Shown in pieces: positions 1,238 through 39,300 of a stretch of DNA of 42,151 nucleotides. The notes under the pieces were generated by a model. It made no database searches and had not been told where the DNA came from. It saw only the letters and a program-made list of their open reading frames with translations. The stretch lies in sequence record SRR33789315_88. One strand, written 5' to 3'. Position numbers and translations under genes: made by a program. Within the stretch, counting starts at the first letter, position 1. Each line of letters begins with the position of its first letter.

Positions 1238-1828
1238 ATGATTAAAACACTATCGCTGGTATTAGCTTTTATTAGTCTGAGCTTTGCTCCTGTTATGGCC
1301 CAAGAGGCGCCATCATCTGCACAATCAATTGTGCCTGAGCAGTCATGTCATCAAGACTACGCAAAAAGAAGAAAGCATTTAGTTATTCGTGCTCTAGCCA
1401 CACCAGTTATTGGAGTTGGTGTTGCAGCTCTTGGAATCGTTATTGGTGCAAACTTGGGAGCAGAAGGTAACGGCGGTTGGGATTCATTAGTTTATGCCTT
1501 AATTGGTGGTTATATCGGTGTGATCGCAACAGTAGTCAGTGAGCTTAGAACAATCTATGAATTAATTAAGGCCAATTCCCTCGTCAAGATTATTGAAGAA
1601 GCCCATTTAATGGCCGGTAAAAGATTAGAAGCTTTGAAAAGATATGCTACGAGAAAGCTTGATCGTGAAGTTACTCTTAATGAAGTTTCAAATGCACTAA
1701 CGAAAGCTGATATGAGCGGAATTCTTTGTGACGGATCAATGAGAGGTAAGTCACCCGATTCAAGACTTAAAAAACGTCTTGCACGTAGAAAAGAAATTAA
1801 TGCTTATTTGTTAAGAGCTCTTAGATAA
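1238..1828 (+). CDS. Hypothetical exported/membrane protein
   Basis: 196-aa ORF, GGGGA RBS, signal peptide (VMA-QE), Gly-rich hydrophobic hairpin, basic C-terminus. Confidence 0.7.
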   Translation: MIKTLSLVLAFISLSFAPVMAQEAPSSAQSIVPEQSCHQDYAKRRKHLVIRALATPVIGVGVAALGIVIGANLGAEGNGGWDSLVYALIGGYIGVIATVVSELRTIYELIKANSLVKIIEEAHLMAGKRLEALKRYATRKLDREVTLNEVSNALTKADMSGILCDGSMRGKSPDSRLKKRLARRKEINAYLLRALR

Positions 1829-1829
1829 T

Positions 1830-2150
1830 CTATTCAAGCATCTGAGGACAAGCAGAACTTAGTCCAAGCGAGCAGGCTTTTATTGTTAAGTTGCTCGCTT
1901 GAATCATGTCACCAGATTTCGCTTCAAGTTCAGCTAAAAGAGAACAGGCAACCGCTTCATTTTTATGACAAGCAAAGTTGTTGAAAATCTTGGCCGAGAA
2001 ATCATAGCCATTGGCATAACTCCACTCACCTAAAAAAGCTCCAAGTGGAACATCCATCACCTTGGCATGTTGAAGAAGAGTATACGGGCCAAAGGCCAAT
2101 ACAAGGGCAAGGATTGAGAGTTTTGTTTTCATAGATATAGTCTGACTCAT
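1830..2150 (-). CDS. Hypothetical small protein with Sel1-like Cys repeats
   Basis: 106-aa ORF, N-terminal hydrophobic segment, ACxxxxxxAC repeats (ACHKNEAVAC, ACSLGLSSAC). Confidence 0.55.
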   Translation of the reverse strand: MSQTISMKTKLSILALVLAFGPYTLLQHAKVMDVPLGAFLGEWSYANGYDFSAKIFNNFACHKNEAVACSLLAELEAKSGDMIQASNLTIKACSLGLSSACPQMLE

Positions 2151-2193
2151 AAATCACAGAAAATGAAGTAGGGCTAAATACCTTAAATCAATA

Positions 2194-2318
2194 TAGCTGC
2201 TCTCAATTTATTAAAGATTAAGGTGAAACGAAATGGAGCGACTGAGGTGTACATTAATGTACACCGCAAGAAGTGACATTGAAGTTGATCCTTAAGATTT
2301 ATAAATTGGGAGTAGATA
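2194..2318 (+). repeat. ~125-bp imperfect palindromic element (ERIC/RPE/MITE-like), copy 2
   Basis: TA-bounded arms TAGCTGCTCTCAATTTAT / ATAAATTGGGAGTAGATA; perfect central 20-bp palindrome GGTGTACATTAATGTACACC (2246-2265); shares motif order with copy 1. Confidence 0.75.
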
Positions 2319-2355
2319 AAAAAGCGGGTTTGATTCTGTACGTCCAAACCCGCTT
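2318..2355 (-). terminator. Intrinsic terminator (minus strand)
   Basis: Minus strand AAGCGGGTTTG-gacgtacagaat-CAAACCCGCTT followed by TTTTAT; U-tract only on the minus strand. Confidence 0.85.
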
Positions 2356-2485
2356 CAAAAGCAACTTTCAATCGAGCACTCCACACACAACACACACGTG
2401 ATACCCAGAACTAGGAGAGCCTCAACACACACACAGCGAGAACTACAGCAAGTACCACCAAGAGCGCTCAAGATCGAAAGTCTTA
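2318..2485 (-). ncRNA. Putative structured small RNA with two GU-repeat loops
   Basis: Nested stems 2472-2481/2364-2373, 2462-2469/2374-2381, 2450-2458/2398-2406, 2437-2444/2418-2424 with about 7 G-U pairs on the minus strand; unpaired GUGUGUGUUGUGUGUG and CUGUGUGUGUGU loops; terminator at the 3' end. 5' end approximate. Confidence 0.65.
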
Positions 2486-2553
2486 TCTTTTATGAATGGG
2501 CTTATGGCCTGAGAATTTGGTCAAGAAAAGAGAGTTGGTAATATTTACACGGC

Positions 2554-3510
2554 TTATTTTTTTGAACGAAGAAGCTTAAAAAGCTGGTTTGCCGCCTGAA
2601 AAGGCGTTTGTTTGGAGGCTGCCACATCTGAAAGTGCCGATTGCCATTGACTTTTAAGCGATGGATCGGTGGCGAGCTCATCTTCAATCATGTTGTTTAG
2701 AAGCTCTTTAAGCCAAGATTTGGCCTGATTTTTTCTTTTGGTTTCAAGATTTTCTTTGCCCGCTGCCTTGTACCAGTTCTCGATTTCATTCCAATATCCA
2801 TCAAGACCAATATTATCTCTGGCCGAACAGGTGATGACTTTAGCCTGCCAAAAATCCTTATGACTTAGAAGGCTTAGAGCATTTTGGTAATGGGACTTCG
2901 CCATCTCAGCCAATGTCTTTTGATCGCCGTCAGCTTTATTTATAACTAACAGGTCAGCCAATTCGATAATGCCTTTTTTTATTCCTTGCAGATCATCGCC
3001 TGCACCTGGAACCAGCATGACTGAAAAAACATCAACCATACCTGAAACAGCAACTTCGGACTGACCGACGCCAACCGTTTCAATCAGAACCACATCAAAA
3101 CCAGCGGCCTCGCATAAAAGCATTGATTCTCTTGTCTTACGCTCAACGCCGCCAAGGGCACCAGAAGTAGGACTTGGTCTAACAAAGGCATTAGGATGGC
3201 GCGAGAGACTTTCCATACGGGTTTTATCACCCATGATGGAGCCGCCTGAAATAGGAGAGCTTGGATCAACCGCCAGCACCGCAACTTTGAGATTCTTTTC
3301 ACAAAGCATGAGGCCTAACTGTTCAATAAAGGTTGATTTACCTACACCCGGAACACCGGAAATTCCGATACGTTTTGATTTACCTGTATGGGGTAAGATT
3401 TCTTGTAAAAGCTTTTGAGACTCTTCTTTGTGTTCAGGCTTTTTGCTTTCAATCAGTGTGATAGCTTTTGATAATGCGCGAATATCACCTTTTAAAAGCT
3501 GATCCTTCAT
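2554..3510 (-). CDS. meaB: Methylmalonyl-CoA mutase-associated GTPase MeaB/ArgK
   Basis: [10 protein letters not shown]-loop, [33 protein letters not shown]; overlaps the mutase stop. Confidence 0.95.
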
Positions 3511-5669
3511 GATTTTCCGTGGGCCTTATTAATTTGGACGAGGACTTCTCTGGCAGCGTCAGGAATAACAGTTCCTGGGCCAAAGATTCCTTTAACACCG
3601 GCTTTGGTTAAAAACTCGTAGTCTTGTTTTGGAATCACACCGCCACAAACCACGATTACGTCATCTGCACCGGCTTTTTTAAGCTCAGCGATCAAATCAG
3701 GAATAAGTGTTTTATGACCAGCGGCTTGAGAGGAAACACCAACGACGTGAACATCATTTTCAAGTGCTTGTTTTGCAACTTCTTCTGGCGTTGAAAAAAG
3801 AGGAGCTAGATCGATATCAAAGCCAACATCAGCAAATGCTGTGGCAATAACTTTAGCTCCACGATCATGTCCATCTTGTCCCATTTTCGCCACTAGCATA
3901 CGTGGGCGACGGCCATGGGCGGCCACAAAAGAATCGATATCTGTTTTAATTTTTTCCCAAGACATATCTCCATCATACGCTGATCCGTAGACTCCGGAAA
4001 CTGTTTGTGATTGGGCGACGTATCTGCCCCATACTTTTTCAAGGGCTTCGGTGATTTCTCCCACAGTGGCGCGAACTTTAGCGGCCTTAACAGCAAGATC
4101 AAGACCGTTGCCGTTACCTGATTTTGCATATTCAGTAAGGGCCGAAAGGGCAGCATCAACGGCTTTTTGATCACGAGATTTCTTTATTTCTTCGATTCGT
4201 TTAACTTGAGAAATACGAACGGCTTGATTATCAATATCTAGGATATCTAACTTTTCTTCTTGATCCGAAGGAATACGATATTTATTCACACCAACGATGA
4301 CATCTTCACCGCGATCAATACGCGCCTGCTTACCAGCGGCTGATTCCTCAATACGAAGTTTAGGCACACCTTTTTCAATCGCTTTGGCCATACCACCTAA
4401 TGATTGAACTTCATTCATTAGCTCAGTGGCGCGATCAGCGATCTGTTGTGTGAGCTTTTCCATCATGAAAGAGCCACCAAATGGATCGACCACATCAGTG
4501 ATACCCGTTTCTTCTTGAAGAATGATCTGGGTGTTTCTAGCGATACGAGCTGAAAAATCTGTCGGTAGAGCAACCGCTTCATCAAATGAATTGGTGTGTA
4601 AAGATTGAGTTCCACCAAAAACTGCTGCCATGGCTTCAATCGTTGTACGAACAACGTTGTTGTATGGATCTTGCTCAGTTAAAGACCAGCCAGAAGTTTG
4701 GCAGTGAGTACGAAGCATTTTTGATTGAATATTTTGAGGATTATAGGCACTCATGATTTTAGACCATAAAAGTCTAGCGGCACGAAGCTTTGCAATTTCC
4801 ATATAGAAATTCATACCAATGCCAAAAAAGAATGAAAGTCTTGGAGCAAAGTCATCGATCTTCATACCTGAAGCGAGTGCAGTTTCAACATATTCCTTTC
4901 CGTCAGCTAAAGTATACGCAAGTTCGAGAGCAGCGTCGGCGCCGGCTTCTTGCATATGATAACCAGAAATAGAAATCGAGTTGAACTTAGGCATATGTTC
5001 AGATGTGTAAGCGAAGATATCAGAGATGGCGCGCATGCTTGGTTTTGGTGGATAGATATAAGTATTTCTCACCATGAATTCTTTAAGAATATCATTTTGA
5101 ATTGTACCTGAGAGCTTATCTTTTGAAACACCTTGCTCTTGTGCCGCCACAATATAATTAGCTAGGATTGGAAGAACAGCTCCGTTCATCGTCATAGAAA
5201 CAGAAACTTTTTCAAGCGGAATTCCATCAAAAAGAATTTTCATATCTTCGACGGAATCAATTGCTACACCCGCTTTACCAACATCACCCTTAACACGAGG
5301 ATGATCAGAGTCGTAACCACGATGAGTGGCTAAATCGAAGGCCACCGATACACCTTGGCCTCCGGCCGAAAGAGCGCGACGATAAAACGCGTTTGATTCT
5401 TCAGCTGTTGAAAAACCTGCGTACTGACGAATAGTCCAAGGACGACCAGAATACATAGTGGCTTTTGGGCCACGAACAAAAGGTTCAAATCCAGGAAGAG
5501 TATTAGCGAACTTTAAATCTTTAGTATCATCACTAGTGTAAAGAGGTTTGATCTCAATACCTTCAGGAGTTTTCTTAGCACTTGGAGCTTTGCCTTTAGC
5601 TTCCTTAGTTGCAAGTTCTTGCCAATCAGAAAGTGTTTTAACTGGTGGATGATATTCGTTGTTCGACAA
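3507..5669 (-). CDS. scpA: Methylmalonyl-CoA mutase (B12-dependent)
   Basis: [34 protein letters not shown]12 motif GQDGHDRG; Tyr/Gln specificity residues fit methylmalonyl-CoA. Start placed at TTG 5669 after AAGGAG. Confidence 0.95.
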
Positions 5670-5903
5670 ATGGTGCTCCTTATATGTGCCTGATATTTTT
5701 AGCAAAAACGAAGAGTTATGACCATGAATCTCGGTGCGAGATTGGCCCTATAGAGATGCTATTTTCTTATAAATACTCACTCTAAGTGTAAGAAATTATG
5801 TATTTCTAGAGTGTTAGCATGGGAAAGACTTTCCTCAAATGTTAGGAAGCTGGAGTTGTACGCTACAATATATGTAGTGAAACCCTCAGGAGGAAGAGAG
5901 GAA

Positions 5904-6458
5904 ATGACCAAGGATTCAACTTCAGGCCAAGAATTAATCTTAGAAACTAGTCTTCAAACATTCTTCTTTGATGAGCTGACACAGGTTAATCAAAAAAGTT
6001 CAAGACCTCTTCCACGTGAAACCGTTCACTATTCTAGTATCGTGCTTGATCAGTATGGTGAATCAGGAAAATATTTTGAGACAGTCGAAGGAAAAGTTCG
6101 AGATAAAGTTTTAGGTCTTAAGCTGCTTGAAACTTGTCATATGACGAAATCAAAACAAGTAAGAGTTCTAAGAGATATTGGTGATACTGCACTTTTTCTT
6201 TGTGGATTTTTTTCAGACTCACTCAATAGTAAAATCATCGATACTAGTTATTACCAACAAATTGGTTGTTCAGCTTATCGAAAGCTAAACCATCTTGTAC
6301 CAGAGTTTTATGAAACACCTTCATTCTATGATCAGTTATCAAAGTCATTTTCTGGTGTAACGATGTTAATGAATATCGTTGCTGAGAAAATGACTAAGCC
6401 TGATCAATTTGAAGGCATGATTCTTTATATTGGCGATCGAAATATTAAGGCTTCTTAG
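5904..6458 (+). CDS. Conserved hypothetical protein
   Basis: ATG 5904 after purine-rich GGAGGAAGAGAGGA; motif LRDIGDTALFLCGFFSDSL...YYQQIGCSAY; function unknown. Confidence 0.75.
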   Translation: MTKDSTSGQELILETSLQTFFFDELTQVNQKSSRPLPRETVHYSSIVLDQYGESGKYFETVEGKVRDKVLGLKLLETCHMTKSKQVRVLRDIGDTALFLCGFFSDSLNSKIIDTSYYQQIGCSAYRKLNHLVPEFYETPSFYDQLSKSFSGVTMLMNIVAEKMTKPDQFEGMILYIGDRNIKAS

Positions 6459-9027
6459 TTTCGTATTCTCTACCAACAACAACAGTTGACCATTTCTTAG
6501 AGAAGGCTTTTTTAAGCTTCTTGTTAAAATCTTCAAAATTGATGGAATCAATGGCTATAAGATTTTTATGGTACCAATCAAGATCGCGTCCTTGAAGAAC
6601 TGGTACCGAATATACTCCCGCCCAATCTTCGTTGGTTTGAACATTAATCTGTGCTTGCCCCTTAATCATTTCTTTAACACGATTGAAATCATCACGAGAT
6701 AGACCTTCATCTCTAAGGCGTTCGATAATAGAGCGAATGGCAGCAATGGCCGGCGTCACTTTATCATGACCACTGGCCATATAAATTCCCCAATAACCAC
6801 CTTCAAGTGCCGTGAAATGAATCGGTTGAGCCGTATAGCAAAGTCCTTGGCGATCACGTACTTCAACAAATAATTCGGAAGATTGTCCACCAAGATGGGC
6901 CGAAATAATTTTTAAAGCATTATGTTCAGCTTCATCCATGCCGCCGCAAGCAATAGCAGTAAAGATTTGTGTTTGTTCTCGCTCAAAAGGAATATAAGTG
7001 AGCTCACTTGGCTTAGGAGTATATTTTTTAGGTGTATGCTTTTTCCATGCGCGGGCCTTAAGTGGCTTGAAGGCTTCTTGGAACTTTTCGTAAACTTCTT
7101 CAAAACTTTGATCACCACAATAAGTGATGAGCATTTCTTTATTCTTAATACTCTTATTGTGAAGACGTTTCATATCTTCAACCTTAAAGCTTTTAACAGT
7201 CTTAGGATTTCCAAGCGCGTTCATGCTGTAAGGGTGAGTATTAAATAAAAACTTAGAAGCCGTTTGAAAACAAACCTTAATCGGATCTTCTTTTTGATTA
7301 TCTAAATGCCTTAACGCGATTTTCTTTTCATGGGCCAAAAACTTAGGTGGAAGAGTTGGATTAAGTAGTGTTTGGCTAAAATGAGTTAAAAGAGTCGTGA
7401 AGTGCTCACTTTGTCCATGAAGAGTTAGGCCATAAGCATTCTTGCCAGAAAAAGCTGAAAGAGAAGCCGACATATCTTCAAGACCATCTTTAAGGTCTTC
7501 GTACTTAATGCCTTTGTAGCCTTTAGTCAGAAGTCCCGCCAACATATGATAGCTGCCGTTGGTCTTTGCATTTTCTTCGGCTAGGCCACCGCGAATATAA
7601 GCATGCATGACAAAAGTTGGATTCATTGGATTTAGGCGGTGAACCAGTTTTACTCCAGGAACAAGATCAACTAAGCGAACTTGTTGATCGTATTTTGAAG
7701 TCTTAACACCTTTGATTTTACTAACAGTCGTAATTTTAGAAAGTTTAGAAAGCCCTTGTTGGAATTTCTCAAGTTCTTTAGTGCATTTTTTTAGATCACT
7801 ACCTTTAGGAACTTGCAGTGAGAAATGTAATGGGCGAGATAAAATATCAGATAGCGCTTTATCTACTTGTGACTTTGTCACTGCTTTCATACGGCGAATA
7901 AATTCCTCTTCACTGCCGATATCACCAAATTGAGCATGTCCATGGCCTAGGGAGAAAGCATAACTTTCAAGAGATTCCATATCGTAAACTTTAGAGGCGA
8001 TATATTGATTTTTGATTTTACGAAGTTCTTTTTCATCAAAGCCTTTTGTCACCGCTTCTTGGAAAGTCTTAACCACTTTGTCACAAGCCTTAGTTATGTT
8101 TTCAACGGGAAGACTTAGGCGCATAAAGTGAACACCACCATCAGTCATAAACATGGTTGAACAGCTACTTGAGTTGGCATAACTCTTATCAACCACAACA
8201 TTGCGATAAAGCCTTGAGCTTTCACCGTGACCTAAACAGTTCATGACCAGATCTTCAGCAGGAGATTTAGGATCAGCAATATTTGGGGCTTGAATTGTTA
8301 CAGTCAATGTTGCAATACGAGTATCTTTCTCATGCACTTCAATCGTTGATTTTTTAGCTAATTCAAATTTTGGAAAAGATGAAGCAGGGCCTTCTGGAAG
8401 TTTAAATTCCTCAACGATTTTTGAAATTTTTTCTTGTCCACCAACATGATCGATATCACCAGCAATAACCAGCATCGAATTCGTAAGATTATAAAATTTC
8501 TTTCTAAAATCTTTTAGCTGATCTTGAGAAAAGTTCTTGATAGTTTCTTCTTCGCCCAAGATCTGATGTGAATAACCACCAGTAAAAGAATTTTTTTGAA
8601 TTTGAGAAAAGGCATACTGATTAGGTGAATCGATTGAGCGTCTAAACTCTTCAAAGACCACGTCACGCTCTGGCTCTAGATCCTCTTGTTTAAACATCGG
8701 ATTAGAAACCATATCCATTAAAATTTTAATGGTGTTATCTAATTTAGGATTTGGGCAGTTAATATAATAACAAGTGTAATCAAATGAAGTGAAGGCATTG
8801 ATCTCACCGCCGAAACTTTCCACATCGTGAGCAATCATCGCCCCAGGTCTTTGTGGTGTTCCTTTAAAAAACATATGTTCAAGAAAATGTGCAATACCGT
8901 GATCTTTACCTGTCTCTAATGCACTTCCAGCGCGAAACCAAATTTGAGCACTAGCACTCGTACTTCCAGGCATATTGATAAAAAGAGTTTTTAGCTTATT
9001 GTTTAGGGTCTTTAATTGATGTTGCAT
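6445..9027 (-). CDS. M16 family zinc peptidase (pitrilysin-like, fused two-half)
   Basis: Inverted zinc motif HFLEH plus NAFTSFDYTCY; second half lacks the motif (HMLAG); C-terminal VRDRQGLCY. Confidence 0.92.
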   Translation of the reverse strand: MQHQLKTLNNKLKTLFINMPGSTSASAQIWFRAGSALETGKDHGIAHFLEHMFFKGTPQRPGAMIAHDVESFGGEINAFTSFDYTCYYINCPNPKLDNTIKILMDMVSNPMFKQEDLEPERDVVFEEFRRSIDSPNQYAFSQIQKNSFTGGYSHQILGEEETIKNFSQDQLKDFRKKFYNLTNSMLVIAGDIDHVGGQEKISKIVEEFKLPEGPASSFPKFELAKKSTIEVHEKDTRIATLTVTIQAPNIADPKSPAEDLVMNCLGHGESSRLYRNVVVDKSYANSSSCSTMFMTDGGVHFMRLSLPVENITKACDKVVKTFQEAVTKGFDEKELRKIKNQYIASKVYDMESLESYAFSLGHGHAQFGDIGSEEEFIRRMKAVTKSQVDKALSDILSRPLHFSLQVPKGSDLKKCTKELEKFQQGLSKLSKITTVSKIKGVKTSKYDQQVRLVDLVPGVKLVHRLNPMNPTFVMHAYIRGGLAEENAKTNGSYHMLAGLLTKGYKGIKYEDLKDGLEDMSASLSAFSGKNAYGLTLHGQSEHFTTLLTHFSQTLLNPTLPPKFLAHEKKIALRHLDNQKEDPIKVCFQTASKFLFNTHPYSMNALGNPKTVKSFKVEDMKRLHNKSIKNKEMLITYCGDQSFEEVYEKFQEAFKPLKARAWKKHTPKKYTPKPSELTYIPFEREQTQIFTAIACGGMDEAEHNALKIISAHLGGQSSELFVEVRDRQGLCYTAQPIHFTALEGGYWGIYMASGHDKVTPAIAAIRSIIERLRDEGLSRDDFNRVKEMIKGQAQINVQTNEDWAGVYSVPVLQGRDLDWYHKNLIAIDSINFEDFNKKLKKAFSKKWSTVVVGREYETKKP

Positions 9028-12907: not shown

Positions 12908-14047
12908 ATGGCAAAACGTGATTATTATGAAGTCTTAGGATTACAAAAAGGTGCTTCTAAAGACGAAATTAAAAAAGCTTATCGCAAGCTTGCTATGCAA
13001 CACCACCCAGATAGAAATCCAGATAACAAAGAATCAGAAGCTAAATTTAAAGAAGGCTCTGAAGCAGCCGAAGTCCTACTCAACGAAGATAAACGCAAGC
13101 GTTATGATCAGTTTGGTCACGCTGGTGTCGACGGTATGAATGGCGGCGGCGGTGGCGGTTTTGGAGGCGGTGGCTTTCAAGACTTTGGCGATCTTGGTGA
13201 TATCTTCGGTGATATCTTTGGTGAATTCATGGGCGGCGGTCGTGGCCGCGGTCGCGGTGGTCGCAGAAGTACAGGGCGCCCTGGAAACGATTTGCAAATG
13301 CCAATTGAAGTTTCATTTCATGAAGCTGCCTTTGGTGTTGAAAAGAAAATATCTATTAACCGCCAAGTCAGCTGTGAAACATGTAATGGCACAGGTGGAA
13401 AAAACGGTGCTCGCCCAGTGGATTGTGGCACTTGTCACGGTTACGGCGAAGTAAGAAGACAGCAAGGTTTTTTCACAGTGGCAACTCCATGTCCAACTTG
13501 TCATGGTTCTGGACAAACAATCTCTGATCCATGCGGTAGTTGTTCTGGTGAAGGACGTCGCCGTAAAAAAGTTGATATCGCTGTTAAAGTTCCAGCAGGT
13601 ATCGATGGTGGGCAGCGCTTAAAACTTTCAGGTGAAGGTGACGCTGGTGGTATGGGTGGACCTGCCGGAGATCTTTACGTTGAAATTCGAGTTAAAGATC
13701 ACGAGCTATTTGAGCGTGATGGTTTTGATGTTCATTGCACGATTCCGGTAAGTTTCTCTCAAGCTGCACTTGGTGCAGAGATAGAAGTTCCAACTCTTGA
13801 AGGCAAAGTCATGGTGAGCATTCCTGAAGGTGCTCAATCAGGACGTCGTATGCGTCTTAAAGCTAAAGGAATACAAAAACTTGGTGGTTACGGCATCGGC
13901 GATCAGATTCTAACTATCCATGTTGAAACACCAACCAAGCTTTCTTCTGAACAAAGAGATTTGTTTAAACGATTGAGTGAACTGGATGGGGAAAGTAACC
14001 CGATGGGTCGTGGATTCTTCGATAAGGTTCGCGATCTATTTCAATAA
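12908..14047 (+). CDS. dnaJ: Chaperone DnaJ
   Basis: J domain HPD, G/F-rich region, four CxxCxGxG motifs. Confidence 0.99.
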
Positions 14048-35638: not shown

Positions 35639-36097
35639 GTGATGATGATTAATTCTAGTAAGTTTTCTATGTGGCGCGCCTGTATCTCTGTTGTCCATCT
35701 TGATGGGCGATTAACAACTGATGAGGACCAGTGGGTAAAGCAGAAAATCGAATCGTTGCCTCTGTCACAAGAGCAAAAAGCAATCTTGCAACAAGATCTC
35801 TCAAACGGAATTGATTTTGATAGCGTCATCGCAGATATATCTGAGCCTAAAGACAAGGCATTTTTATTGCACTTGCTAAGAGTGATCGCTCATCTTGATG
35901 GTGATTTTTCAAGCGATGAAAAACAGGCCTACGCAAAGCTTGAAAAGATCGTTCTAAGCAGGCTTGATCTGGCTAAATTTGAAAAGCAAGCTCAAGAGAT
36001 CGAGGATGCCAGCTATAAAAATGTACCCCTAGATAATAAAAGTTCACTGTTCGAAGCAGTCATTAAAAACATCGTTTCATTTCTTACGGCCGGCTAA
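35639..36097 (+). CDS. TerB/DjlA-N-like protein
   Basis: Two copies of HLDGxxxxDE (VVHLDGRLTTDE, IAHLDGDFSSDE). Confidence 0.7.
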   Translation: MMMINSSKFSMWRACISVVHLDGRLTTDEDQWVKQKIESLPLSQEQKAILQQDLSNGIDFDSVIADISEPKDKAFLLHLLRVIAHLDGDFSSDEKQAYAKLEKIVLSRLDLAKFEKQAQEIEDASYKNVPLDNKSSLFEAVIKNIVSFLTAG

Positions 36098-36261
36098 GGG
36101 CCCGAAAATTCGCATATGTAAAAAAGAGTTGAAAATATTTCTTTTTTGCACAATGCATAAGGCCATTGATTTAAAGCTGTTACGGCCCGCCGCGGCCTAG
36201 CAAAAGCCTTGTCGGACCGCACTTTCCCGTGTCATCGTATAGGGGCAGAACGGATTTCTGT

Positions 36262-36278
36262 CACACAACACACACAAC
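36262..36278 (+). promoter_or_regulatory. CA-rich element upstream of the smc RBS
   Basis: CACACAACACACACAAC ending 12 nt before GGAGG (36291-36295). Confidence 0.45.
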
Positions 36279-36301
36279 GCATCCAAGCGCGGAGGCCTCG
36301 C

Positions 36302-39300
36302 TTGAAATTAAAACGTCTAATAGTTCAGGGTTTTAAATCCTTTAAAGATCGTACAGTCATTCATTTCGATGATGGTATTACAGGAATCGTTGGTCCCAAC
36401 GGTTGCGGTAAATCTAATATTGTTGATGCCCTCTTTTGGGTAATGGGTGAGCAATCAGCAAAACACCTTCGTGGTAATTCCATGAAAGATGTAATCTTTG
36501 CTGGTTCATCAAAATATTCTCCAGGCTCGTTTGCTGAAGCAACACTTGTTTTAGAAAACGTTCACGGAAAACATATTCACATTGGTAATAAAGTTTCTTC
36601 TCCAACTGAAATTCAGTTAACAAGAAAACTTTATCGTAACGGTGAGACTGAATATCGTATTAATAACGAGCCAGCTCGTCTTCGCGATATTCAAGAAGTA
36701 TTCATGGATACTGGTGCCGGTGCAAAGTCGTATTCAATTATTGCTCAAGGTGAAATTAACAGACTTGTTCAGGCTAAGCCTGAAGAACGTCGTACCATGA
36801 TTGAAGAAGTTGCTGGTATTACAAAATTCAAAATGAGAAAGCGCGAGTCTTTAAAGAAAATTGAGGCGACTCAATCAAACCTTTCAAGACTAAATGATCT
36901 TCAAGCTGAAATTGAAAAGCAATTGAAAGCGCTTGAAAAACAAGCAGAAAAAGCTGAGCGCGCTAAAACGCTTAAAGAAAAAATTCGTCGTAATGAATTA
37001 GTGACTGTTTCTCACCGTGTATTTGATCTCTTAAAAAATCTAAGAGACGGCGCCACTATGGTTAATGAGAAACGCCTTGAAGTTGAAAGCTGGACACTAG
37101 AAAAAGAACAGTTTGAAGTTTCACTCGCAGACGAGCGTCTTAACAAAGACGAGCAAACTGATCGTATCGAAGAATATCAAAAAGAATATAATGAGCTTTC
37201 AAGAAACCTTGCCGGAGCCGAAGAGCGCTTGAATTCACTTTGTCGTGAACAAAGTGAAAAAGAAAAGCAATTAGAGCAACGTGAAAAAGATCTTGAAGAA
37301 GCAAAACTTGAAGTGGCCAACAGGACTGAGCGCTTAGAAAAACTTTTTTCTGAACGTGAAGAAGTTGAAGCTCAAGGGCGTGAAGAGCATGATTTTGCTG
37401 CTCTTGAAGAAAAAGTTGAAGCTTTAAAAGAAGAACTTGAACTTAGAAATGATACACTTTCAAATCTTGAAGAAGAAGTAAGTGTGGCGAGAAAAAGTCT
37501 TACTGATGTTGATCAGCAAGTTTTCAAAAATAGCTCTCGCCTTGAAGAGTACTCTGCACAGCTACAAGACCTTGCAGCGGAAATTGAAGCACTTGAAAAA
37601 CAATATTCAGGTGTATCAACACAAATTGCTGATGAGCGCGATGCTGTTAACGAAACAGCTGACCAGATGGAAGAGCTTACGATTCAGGATCAAGCTCACC
37701 GTCAGAATCTCGAGTTACTATCAACCGAAGTAAAAGAACTAGAAAAAGATCACGCCATTAAAAGTCGTGAGCTTATCCAATCAGAAAGTAAGCTTTCTTC
37801 CCTTATTGAAATCAATAAGTCGCTTGAAGGTGTTAAGGCTGGTGCCGCGAACTTCCTTGAAGGTCGTGATGACGATGCCTTTAGCCTACTTGGAAATCTT
37901 ATTCGTTCAGAAGAAGCAGATACGGCAGGCGTGCAAATGCTATTGGCCGATATTGTTAATACTCTTATTGCTCGCGACGAAAACGGTGCAACTGAGCTTG
38001 TGTCTTGGCTTCAAGGTAAAGAGGATATCTCCTTAGACTTCCTTCAAGGTGAAGCACCAAAAACAAGTGTTGAAAGCGAAGAGCGTCTACGTCTTCAGGG
38101 TCTTCAAGATTTAAGAGCACTTAATGATGTTGTTCAAATCACAGAAGGCTATGAAGCTCGCGTTCGTCCTCTTCTTCACGGTCTTTATCTTTCAAATGAA
38201 CTAACTCAAACTCTAGCTAGTGAGCTTTCGGCGCAAATTACGTACCGTGGTATCGCTCATCCAAATGGCACTGTGGCGATCAAGAATCACCATGGTGTAA
38301 AAGTCGTTAGTTTTGCAGGTGCAGGCGCTGAAGAAAATGGTGTCGTTGCTAGAAATAATAAAATTGAATCCCTTACGATAAAAGTTGCTGAGCTTGAAGG
38401 TATTCTTTCAAGCTTAACAGAAGTTCTTGATGCTAAAAGAACGACTCTAGAAGATCTTAAATTCACAGCAGACCAAGTTCGTGAAAACTTATCAGATGTT
38501 AGAGCGGATCACGCTGCTAAAAAATCAGCCCTTGAAGGCAAGCTTGCAGGGATGGAAAGCGGTACAAGCCGTCTAGAAATTCTTAAGAAGAGAAAATCAG
38601 AAACTTCTAAGGCGAGAGTTGATCTACTTGAAAGTGATGACAAGTTAACCAAAAGCCAAGAGCAGTTTAAAGCTGACCTTGAAGAAAAAGAATCACAATT
38701 TGAAGCTCTATCTGAAGAAGCTTCAATGCTTCGTGATCAATTTGACAGTGAAAGACAAGAACTTCTTGAAAAACAAGCAATGGCCAAAGGTTATAATGAT
38801 CGTATGGCTTCATTTGTTTCTCAAATTGAAGATGTTGAAGCTCAGATTGCTAGATTAGAGCAAAGAGTGACAACAACTGAAGAAACAATTGAGAAAATTA
38901 CAACTCAAATTGCTGAAACTGAAACAGAGCTTCAATCTCTTGAAGCTTCAAACCAGGAAGCGGCTTCTGTTCTTCAAGATAAAGAAGAAGCGCTATCGAT
39001 GCTTAAAGATCAGCTTGTTGTTCTTCTTCAAAGCATGCAAGAGCGTGAAGATAAGGTTAAAGAGCTCTCGAAAAAGATCGTTGCTAACGAAAAAGAAATG
39101 GCCCTTCACGAGTCAAAGCTTGGTCAATGGCTTACTGAAGAAGAGCAGAACGTTCGTGATGGATTTGAAAAATACAGAGTTGATCTTAGAAAAACGATTG
39201 GTCAATTCCTTGAGTATACTGAAGATCAGTATCTTGAACTTAATGATCTATCTAGTATGTACCAGATGGAATCAGAAAATGGTCCAGTCACTCTTGAGGC

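Follow-up and report, generated by a model that had tools for sequence, protein, structure and literature searches.

A predicted rod-shaped RNA with two GU-repeat loops downstream of meaB in a putative Halobacteriovorax-like lineage

The analysed stretch of DNA (SRR33789315_88; 42,151 nucleotides, referred to below as the window; overall G+C content 0.39) carries on its minus strand a gene for a fused methylmalonyl-CoA mutase, followed by meaB as the last gene of the mutase-meaB pair and, beyond a 403-nt spacer, by an open reading frame for 106 amino acids (orf106). This spacer is the setting of the element described here, which lies downstream of the meaB stop codon and shares its strand with an intrinsic terminator (hairpin followed by U6). 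The parts of the element and its surroundings are listed in Table 1, and their coordinates and minus-strand sequence agree with those of the initial annotation of this DNA. In a protein search the MeaB clade comprises about 11 clusters at 69-100% identity (the next ones are at 59%), and the cluster holding MeaB of L083, the divergent relative discussed below, includes an NCBI MAG named Halobacteriovorax sp. This is consistent with the window coming from an uncultured Halobacteriovorax-like bacterium, and also with the earlier guess that it belongs to Bacteriovoracia.

Table 1. Features of the meaB downstream region and of the candidate target site (positions in the window).
Feature	Position	Strand	Remarks
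orf106	1830-2150	minus	106 aa; no known family
Intrinsic terminator	2318-2356	minus	13-14-bp stem, ~12-nt loop GGACGUACAGAAU, U6 tail
Linker between rod and terminator	2357-2363	minus	7 nt, single-stranded
Rod	2364-2481	minus	~120 nt (2363-2482); minimum-energy and consensus folds
P1	2472-2481 with 2364-2373	minus	minimum-energy fold
UU bulge	2470-2471	minus	minimum-energy fold
P2	2461-2469 with 2374-2382	minus	minimum-energy fold
Internal loop, GU repeat GUGUGUGUUGUGUGU	2383-2397 (2382/3-2397)	minus	15-16 nt, asymmetric, on the 3' side of the rod; candidate seed
P3	2450-2458 with 2398-2406	minus	minimum-energy fold
Distal helix, bulged	2436-2449 with 2410-2426	minus	minimum-energy fold
Apical loop, GU repeat, within CUGUGUGUGUGU	2425-2436	minus	identical in L083
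Untranslated stretch, meaB stop to rod	2483-2553	minus	60 of 72 columns identical in L083; contains TTGACC (2519-2524)
meaB stop codon	2554-2556	minus	
meaB	2554-3510	minus	318 aa; Pfam MeaB 2.4e-106; last of the mutase-meaB pair
Fused methylmalonyl-CoA mutase	3507-5705	minus	MM_CoA_mutase 2.3e-238 and B12-binding; precedes meaB
Candidate target CACACAACACACAC, CA-rich	36262-36275	plus	smc leader, 27-40 nt before TTG start 36302

The minimum-energy fold calculated by ViennaRNA for the minus strand (2360-2485) recovers helices P1-P3, the UU bulge and both loops that had been drawn by eye in the initial annotation. The fourth helix proposed there, P4, is recovered in part: a P4-like distal helix with a bulge is present in the minimum-energy fold of the window RNA, whereas the RNA of L083 draws a different distal helix in its own fold. 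The unpaired parts had been described as dinucleotide repeats, and GU repeats indeed occupy both the internal and the apical loop of the predicted fold. The predicted mean unpaired probability in the window RNA is 0.87 for the internal loop and 0.75 for the apical one (0.62 in L083), and the mean pair probability of P1-P3 is 0.97 in the window and 0.84 in L083 when the 3'UTR is folded in full. G-U pairs make up ten of the 40 in the rod, and the earlier count of about seven wobbles favoring the minus strand was roughly right; read on the plus strand, the rod keeps 30 of its 40 pairs.

The terminator, also part of the original description, consists of 13-14 pairs and, in the minus-strand reading, a UUUUUU run behind them. 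Read in the plus direction, the hairpin is succeeded by TTCAAAAG and lacks a U-tract. A simple terminator scan missed this terminator, the loop limit of the scan being 3-8 nt and the loop here being longer.

Folded alone, the minus strand of the rod reaches -39.1 kcal/mol (z -3.44), and none of the 200 shuffles is as good; the plus strand reaches -19.4 kcal/mol (z -2.03), a value that 8 of 200 shuffles equal or surpass. This strand asymmetry arises because 10 of the 40 rod pairs are G-U. The comparison with shuffled controls thus sides with the strand chosen in the initial annotation, but by energy the rod is only the 33rd among 4004 126-nt windows of the 42-kb sequence, and two other stretches (2170-2317 and 6290-6470) beat its z. 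Since other windows fold as well or better, the fold statistics alone would fail under multiple looks; a hairpin like the rod is expected by chance fairly often when 42 kb are scanned by eye. When energy is regressed on G+C and G+U content, the rod falls at its expected value (residual z 0.05). This regression extrapolates to an extreme G+U content (0.71) and is not relied on, dinucleotide shuffles being the proper control; it nevertheless gives a warning that G+U richness explains much of the rod stability.

Several other regions of the window attract attention by their folding. The first of the two stretches mentioned above (2170-2317, minus strand) extends from the terminator to orf106 and forms a second long imperfect hairpin (-30.8 kcal/mol, z -3.99), the centre of which is a perfect 20-nt palindrome, GGTGTACATTAATGTACACC, at about 2246-2265. 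L081, a close relative, has this hairpin unchanged, and in L083 nothing aligned with it; it may be an operator of orf106 or an RNA hairpin. The other stretch (6290-6470, plus strand) forms a long hairpin of very high stability (-52.4 kcal/mol, z -5.20) and represents the strongest composition-corrected fold in the window. It is situated within the 3' end of an open reading frame without Pfam family (5811-6458) that runs toward an M16 peptidase gene (6445-9027) in convergent orientation. Raw fold energy is lowest at 13063-13293 (plus strand), where values go down to -50.5 kcal/mol and the DNA is locally G+C-rich (0.52-0.59).

Relatives of the locus were collected by searching metagenomes with the last 79 residues of MeaB, its divergent C-terminal part, which gave four loci, L081-L084 (L081, L082, L083 and L084). 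The sole informative divergent relative among them is L083, a marine metagenome contig, whose MeaB is identical at 280 of 318 residues (88%) and which has the gene order mutase-meaB-element-orf106 in common with the window. Between the terminator and the orf106 homologue (2914-3219) L083 has an extra open reading frame (2357-2758, minus) for 133 amino acids. Its start resembles a signal peptide, it belongs to no Pfam family, and it lies on the opposite strand and converges on the terminator. The MeaB C-terminus of L084 is 94% identical, and an ISL3 transposase gene follows directly after the meaB stop (IS at 146-1556 of that contig, ISL3-family transposase gene at 262-1530, PF01610, 7.3e-45). 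As this contig ends inside the IS, it was set aside as uninformative on the presence of the element. Two further loci labelled 'delta proteobacterium' were dropped, their G+C content being 58-61%. In a MeaB scan of genome contigs all the matches listed have at most 57% identity and belong to other phyla.

Near-identical strains (96.8% over 4.6 kb) are represented by L081 and L082. L081 differs from the window at no position of 2363-2553, and equally at none of the unrelated neighbouring spacer 2151-2317, so this comparison is uninformative. The stretch is carried by 20 listed sequencing runs, all of them aquifer or groundwater metagenomes, with no RNA run among those listed. Contigs of four of 23 listed runs (X1, X12, X18 and X20) represent an L081-like strain and show no difference in the rod, a comparison as shallow as that with L081. 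Positions 2356 and 2360-2362 differ in L081, in L082 and in three of these four runs, the fourth having no coverage there; the linker region is the only part that varies among the near-identical aquifer strains. Within meaB, parts of 2929-3124 (about 2954-3008 and 3055-3108) are covered far more deeply by contigs of other organisms with less than 90% likeness. These parts correspond to conserved P-loop GTPase motifs of other MeaB-like genes and not to strain variants.

The comparison with L083 is the one that carries weight. Nucleotide identity between the two meaB genes is 0.88, 0.94 and 0.54 at codon positions 1, 2 and 3, while in the noncoding stretch from the meaB stop to the U-tract 200 of 236 positions are identical (85%). 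By parts, identity amounts to 60/72 between stop codon and rod, 95/118 in the rod, 7/7 in the linker and 38/39 columns in the terminator including its 12-nt loop. Just past the U-tract only 2 of 13 positions are identical, and farther on there is no alignment at all. The contrast of 85% with 54% at third codon positions, together with this sharp boundary at the terminator, argues for purifying selection, and on this evidence the 236-nt stretch is a noncoding element maintained by it. Since the similarity ends at the terminator, the element appears to belong to the end of the meaB transcript and not to the downstream gene. A small protein gene was considered and rejected, as the rod has indels of 1, 2 and 1 nt relative to L083. 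The open reading frames on the same strand (window 2183-2395, L083 2197-2499) were discarded as well, because they cross the terminator and diverge completely beyond it.

Detailed examination of the 19 rod substitutions that separate the window from L083 shows that 16 of them fall on the 80 paired positions and three among the 38 unpaired, which makes the loops the best-conserved part of the rod. In spite of the changes, 37 of the 40 pairs are standard in L083, and the three lost ones are all at the junction of P3 with the distal helix. Conservation of stems and loops, the lack of which would have counted against the initial annotation, is largely found in this one relative. Random placement of substitutions with the same transition and transversion counts keeps 32.8 pairs on average (P=0.016); when 16 changes are required to fall on paired sites, this average drops to 31.2 (P=0.0006). 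Two pairs are altered on both sides (A-U to C-G in P1 and U-G to G-U in P2), and nine show a one-sided switch between G-C or A-U and G-U. The G-U positions differ between the two sequences, and a plus-strand reading keeps 30/40 pairs in the window and 28/40 in L083. Such shifting of G-U positions points to pairing of a minus-strand RNA, as opposed to a DNA palindrome or a plus-strand RNA. The apical loop is unchanged, and in the internal loop the 5' half is kept while the 3' half becomes UUUAUU, i.e. (GU)4U(GU)4 in the window corresponds to (GU)5UUUAUU in L083.

The rod of L083 forms P1-P3 unaided (-38.7 kcal/mol, z -2.89). A null based on energy is weak: when the window rod is mutated at random, 10% of the mutants fold equally well as the L083 rod (P=0.10). 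As to covariation, which the initial annotation had named as a test on homologues, changes that preserve the structure are present in the one divergent relative, but in a column-shuffle control on three sequences 63 of 500 shuffles reach the observed covariation score, which is not significant. Taken together, the pattern of substitutions makes it likely that a minus-strand RNA structure has been under selection at this site. What raises the putative element above chance is the conservation pattern in L083, not the fold energy.

It could be objected that the rod is functionless, i.e. a chance hairpin grown at slippage-prone GT/AC microsatellites, or the relic of a mobile inverted repeat, which looks conserved owing to low divergence. 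Such an origin would agree with a fold energy that is unexceptional in the window and with the GU-tract lengths, which vary between lineages in a microsatellite-like manner, only two lineages being at hand; in the shallow strain comparison the neighbouring spacer, too, has equally few changes. However, it does not account for 85% identity against 54% at synonymous-like sites, for the abrupt stop of similarity past the terminator, or for substitutions that keep pairs beyond the null and shift G-U positions in a manner fitting RNA and not DNA pairing. A MITE- or REP-like repeat was rejected as well, the element being present in a single copy in the 42 kb (no second copy was found by blastn-short or by the covariance model) and having no match by blastn among 72,556 plasmid and 50,697 phage records. 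Sequence-pattern and MeaB scans of viral contigs likewise gave no match. With these observations a functionless origin is quite improbable.

The question of how the RNA would be made was approached from its upstream side. The initial annotation had offered two possibilities, an own promoter and processing from the mutase-meaB 3' end. The TTGACC hexamer on which the former was based is present in the window; its counterpart in L083 is CTGCCA/TGCCAC, and no -10 element is found at a distance of 16-18 nt, so the proposed promoter is not supported. A consensus scan of the minus strand for sigma-70-like sites found none in 1800-3000. By eye, a weak TTCTCA-17 nt-TAAAAG can be seen that ends about 7 nt before P1 and is largely conserved in L083, but its -10 candidate TAAAAG lacks the T at position 6. 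A promoter between meaB and the rod, driving an independent sRNA gene, might account for the 83% conservation of the 72 nt that precede the rod, and the ISL3 element after the meaB stop in L084 would require any element downstream of it to have its own promoter (that contig ends within the IS); with the promoter evidence as it is, such a gene seems unlikely. Of the two possibilities, the second fits better: conservation begins at the meaB stop codon, and since it runs from there onward, an origin from the 3'UTR fits best. The evidence favours an element of the meaB 3'UTR or an sRNA derived from that 3'UTR.

The novelty suggested in the initial annotation is supported by the searches for known families. 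Rfam 15 searched over 1800-3000 on both strands at E<=10 gave four chance-level matches of 13-16 bits against gathering scores of 35-90, and the sole one touching the element, to P31, is on the plus strand and covers the terminator hairpin; no relevant match to a known RNA family was thus found in this region. The GcvB model (RF00022) also had no match there at E<=10. At the Rfam gathering score the whole window yields one tRNA only, in agreement with ARAGORN. Covariance model R1 recognized nothing beside 80 meaB loci of other lineages (0/80; the best scores are 9.9 and 9.7 bits with E of 7-8). The element can be classed as a candidate for a new family within a known kind of RNA, represented so far by two Halobacteriovorax-like lineages.

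A possible partner for the loops is found within the window itself. The internal loop is complementary over 14 nt, without a mismatch, to the CA-rich sequence CACACAACACACAC in the leader of smc. Outside the element this sequence occurs once in the window, whereas none is expected from 100 dinucleotide-preserving shuffles with one mismatch allowed. Among 21064 windows on both strands the smc site forms the best duplex with the internal loop (-24.8 kcal/mol; -27.5 kcal/mol with flanks). The site lies just upstream of GGAGG and is unpaired in the leader's own predicted fold; the SMC_N profile begins at residue 3 of the smc product counted from the TTG start at 36302. The spacer upstream of smc (36098-36301, plus strand, about 200 nt) consists of a G+C-rich part followed by CACACAACACACACAAC, GGAGG and TTG. 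The leader as a whole has an unremarkable fold (z -1.2), and no sigma-70-like promoter was found in 35900-36400. The smc leader should be considered as a lead only, because it is a single post-hoc match between low-complexity sequences. Moreover, with the 3' half of the internal loop changed in L083, the 14-nt match would shrink there unless the target has changed along with it.

The following explanation is suggested by these data. The element would be transcribed as the 3'UTR of the mutase-meaB mRNA and would end at the terminator of that mRNA. The rod of about 120 nt would keep two GU-repeat tracts unpaired, one in the apical loop and one in the 15-nt internal loop. Acting where it stands in the mRNA, or as a 3'UTR-derived sRNA once released, the RNA would offer these GU-rich loops for pairing with CA-rich single-stranded stretches of mRNA leaders, as region R1 of GcvB does, the concrete target candidate within the window being the smc leader with its 14 perfect pairs. 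The element is probably a regulatory RNA. That its GU loops act by base pairing with CA-rich RNAs is a tentative proposal made by analogy with GcvB, and the explanation as a whole, a selected 3'UTR RNA whose GU loops pair with CA-rich leaders, is put forward with the same reserve.

The same position in the transcript would also suit a purely cis-acting 3'UTR element that protects the mRNA from exonucleases, tunes termination or serves as a platform for a GU-repeat protein, with no targets in trans. The element lies wholly within the meaB 3'UTR with conservation starting from the stop codon, no promoter was found, and the target candidate is single and post hoc; the terminator with its loop is invariant at 38 of 39 columns, as expected of one functional 3'-end unit. 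On the other hand, a simple stabilising hairpin needs no conserved loops, while here changes affect 3 of 38 unpaired against 16 of 80 paired positions. The lack of a similar element at all 80 meaB loci of other lineages also argues against a general need of such operons. A role confined to cis is considered somewhat unlikely, and pairing of the GU loops with CA-rich leaders is kept as the working explanation.

To our knowledge, little is known about regulatory RNAs of predatory Bacteriovoracia, and strict GU dinucleotide repeats held open by a rod are, as far as we know, unusual in bacterial RNAs. A conserved 3'UTR RNA on a methylmalonyl-CoA mutase operon would be a new family. If the proposed pairing is true, GU-rich/CA-rich recognition in the style of GcvB would have arisen independently in a distant lineage, and if the smc leader is its target, propionate and odd-chain carbon metabolism would be linked to synthesis of a chromosome-organisation protein. 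For now the value of the element is limited by the narrow, uncultured family that carries it and by the RNA and its target both being predicted.

Comparison with known RNAs helps to place the element. The pUG fold, in which poly(UG) RNA adopts a left-handed quadruplex, comes to mind because of the GU repeats, the window RNA having 13 G in GU context. This fold prefers 12 guanosines in one tract, and the text of the source does not contain the word 'bacteria' (PMC12962679). In the element the guanosines are split 5 + 8 between two loops that are separated by about 25 nt and lie on either side of helices, and in L083 their number is only 10; the pUG fold is kept as a reading of low probability. 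In this highly improbable reading the rod would act as a scaffold joining the two GU tracts, which would form a pUG-like G-quadruplex or G·U loop-loop module or else attract a GU-repeat protein as a decoy. If true, it would be the first bacterial GU-repeat RNA serving as a structural or protein-recognition mark, and the B12-dependent mutase operon would have its expression coupled to a further process, e.g. SMC synthesis.

The base-pairing explanation preferred here finds its model in GcvB, an Hfq-dependent sRNA that is controlled by GcvA/GcvR and whose gene is divergent from gcvA. Its R1 region is described as conserved, unstructured and GU-rich, pairing with CA-rich repeats in or upstream of ribosome-binding sites and silencing CA-rich enhancer elements; in gltI the distance from the site to the start codon downstream is 45 nt (PMC3879156). 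The likeness consists in a GU-rich single-stranded region, predicted in our case, that would pair with CA-rich sites, the candidate here being 27-40 nt before the smc start, and in the intrinsic terminator at the end of both RNAs. In contrast to GcvB, the element is situated at the 3' end of meaB in a Bacteriovoracia-like lineage and has no Rfam match at E<=10, and its GU tracts are strict dinucleotide repeats placed in the loops of a long rod and not in an open linker.

As regards its origin, the element can be compared with NarS, SdhX and CpxQ, 3'UTR-derived sRNAs that share the terminator of their mRNA. 3'UTR-derived sRNAs form an established class (PMC7038943). Compared with what is typical of this class, the element is longer (236 nt with a 120-nt rod), far more structured and known from sequence alone. 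Like them, it follows the stop codon of the gene that closes a metabolic operon, is situated in the 3'UTR there and uses the terminator of that operon. No promoter of its own is convincing, and its conservation exceeds that of synonymous sites in the upstream gene.
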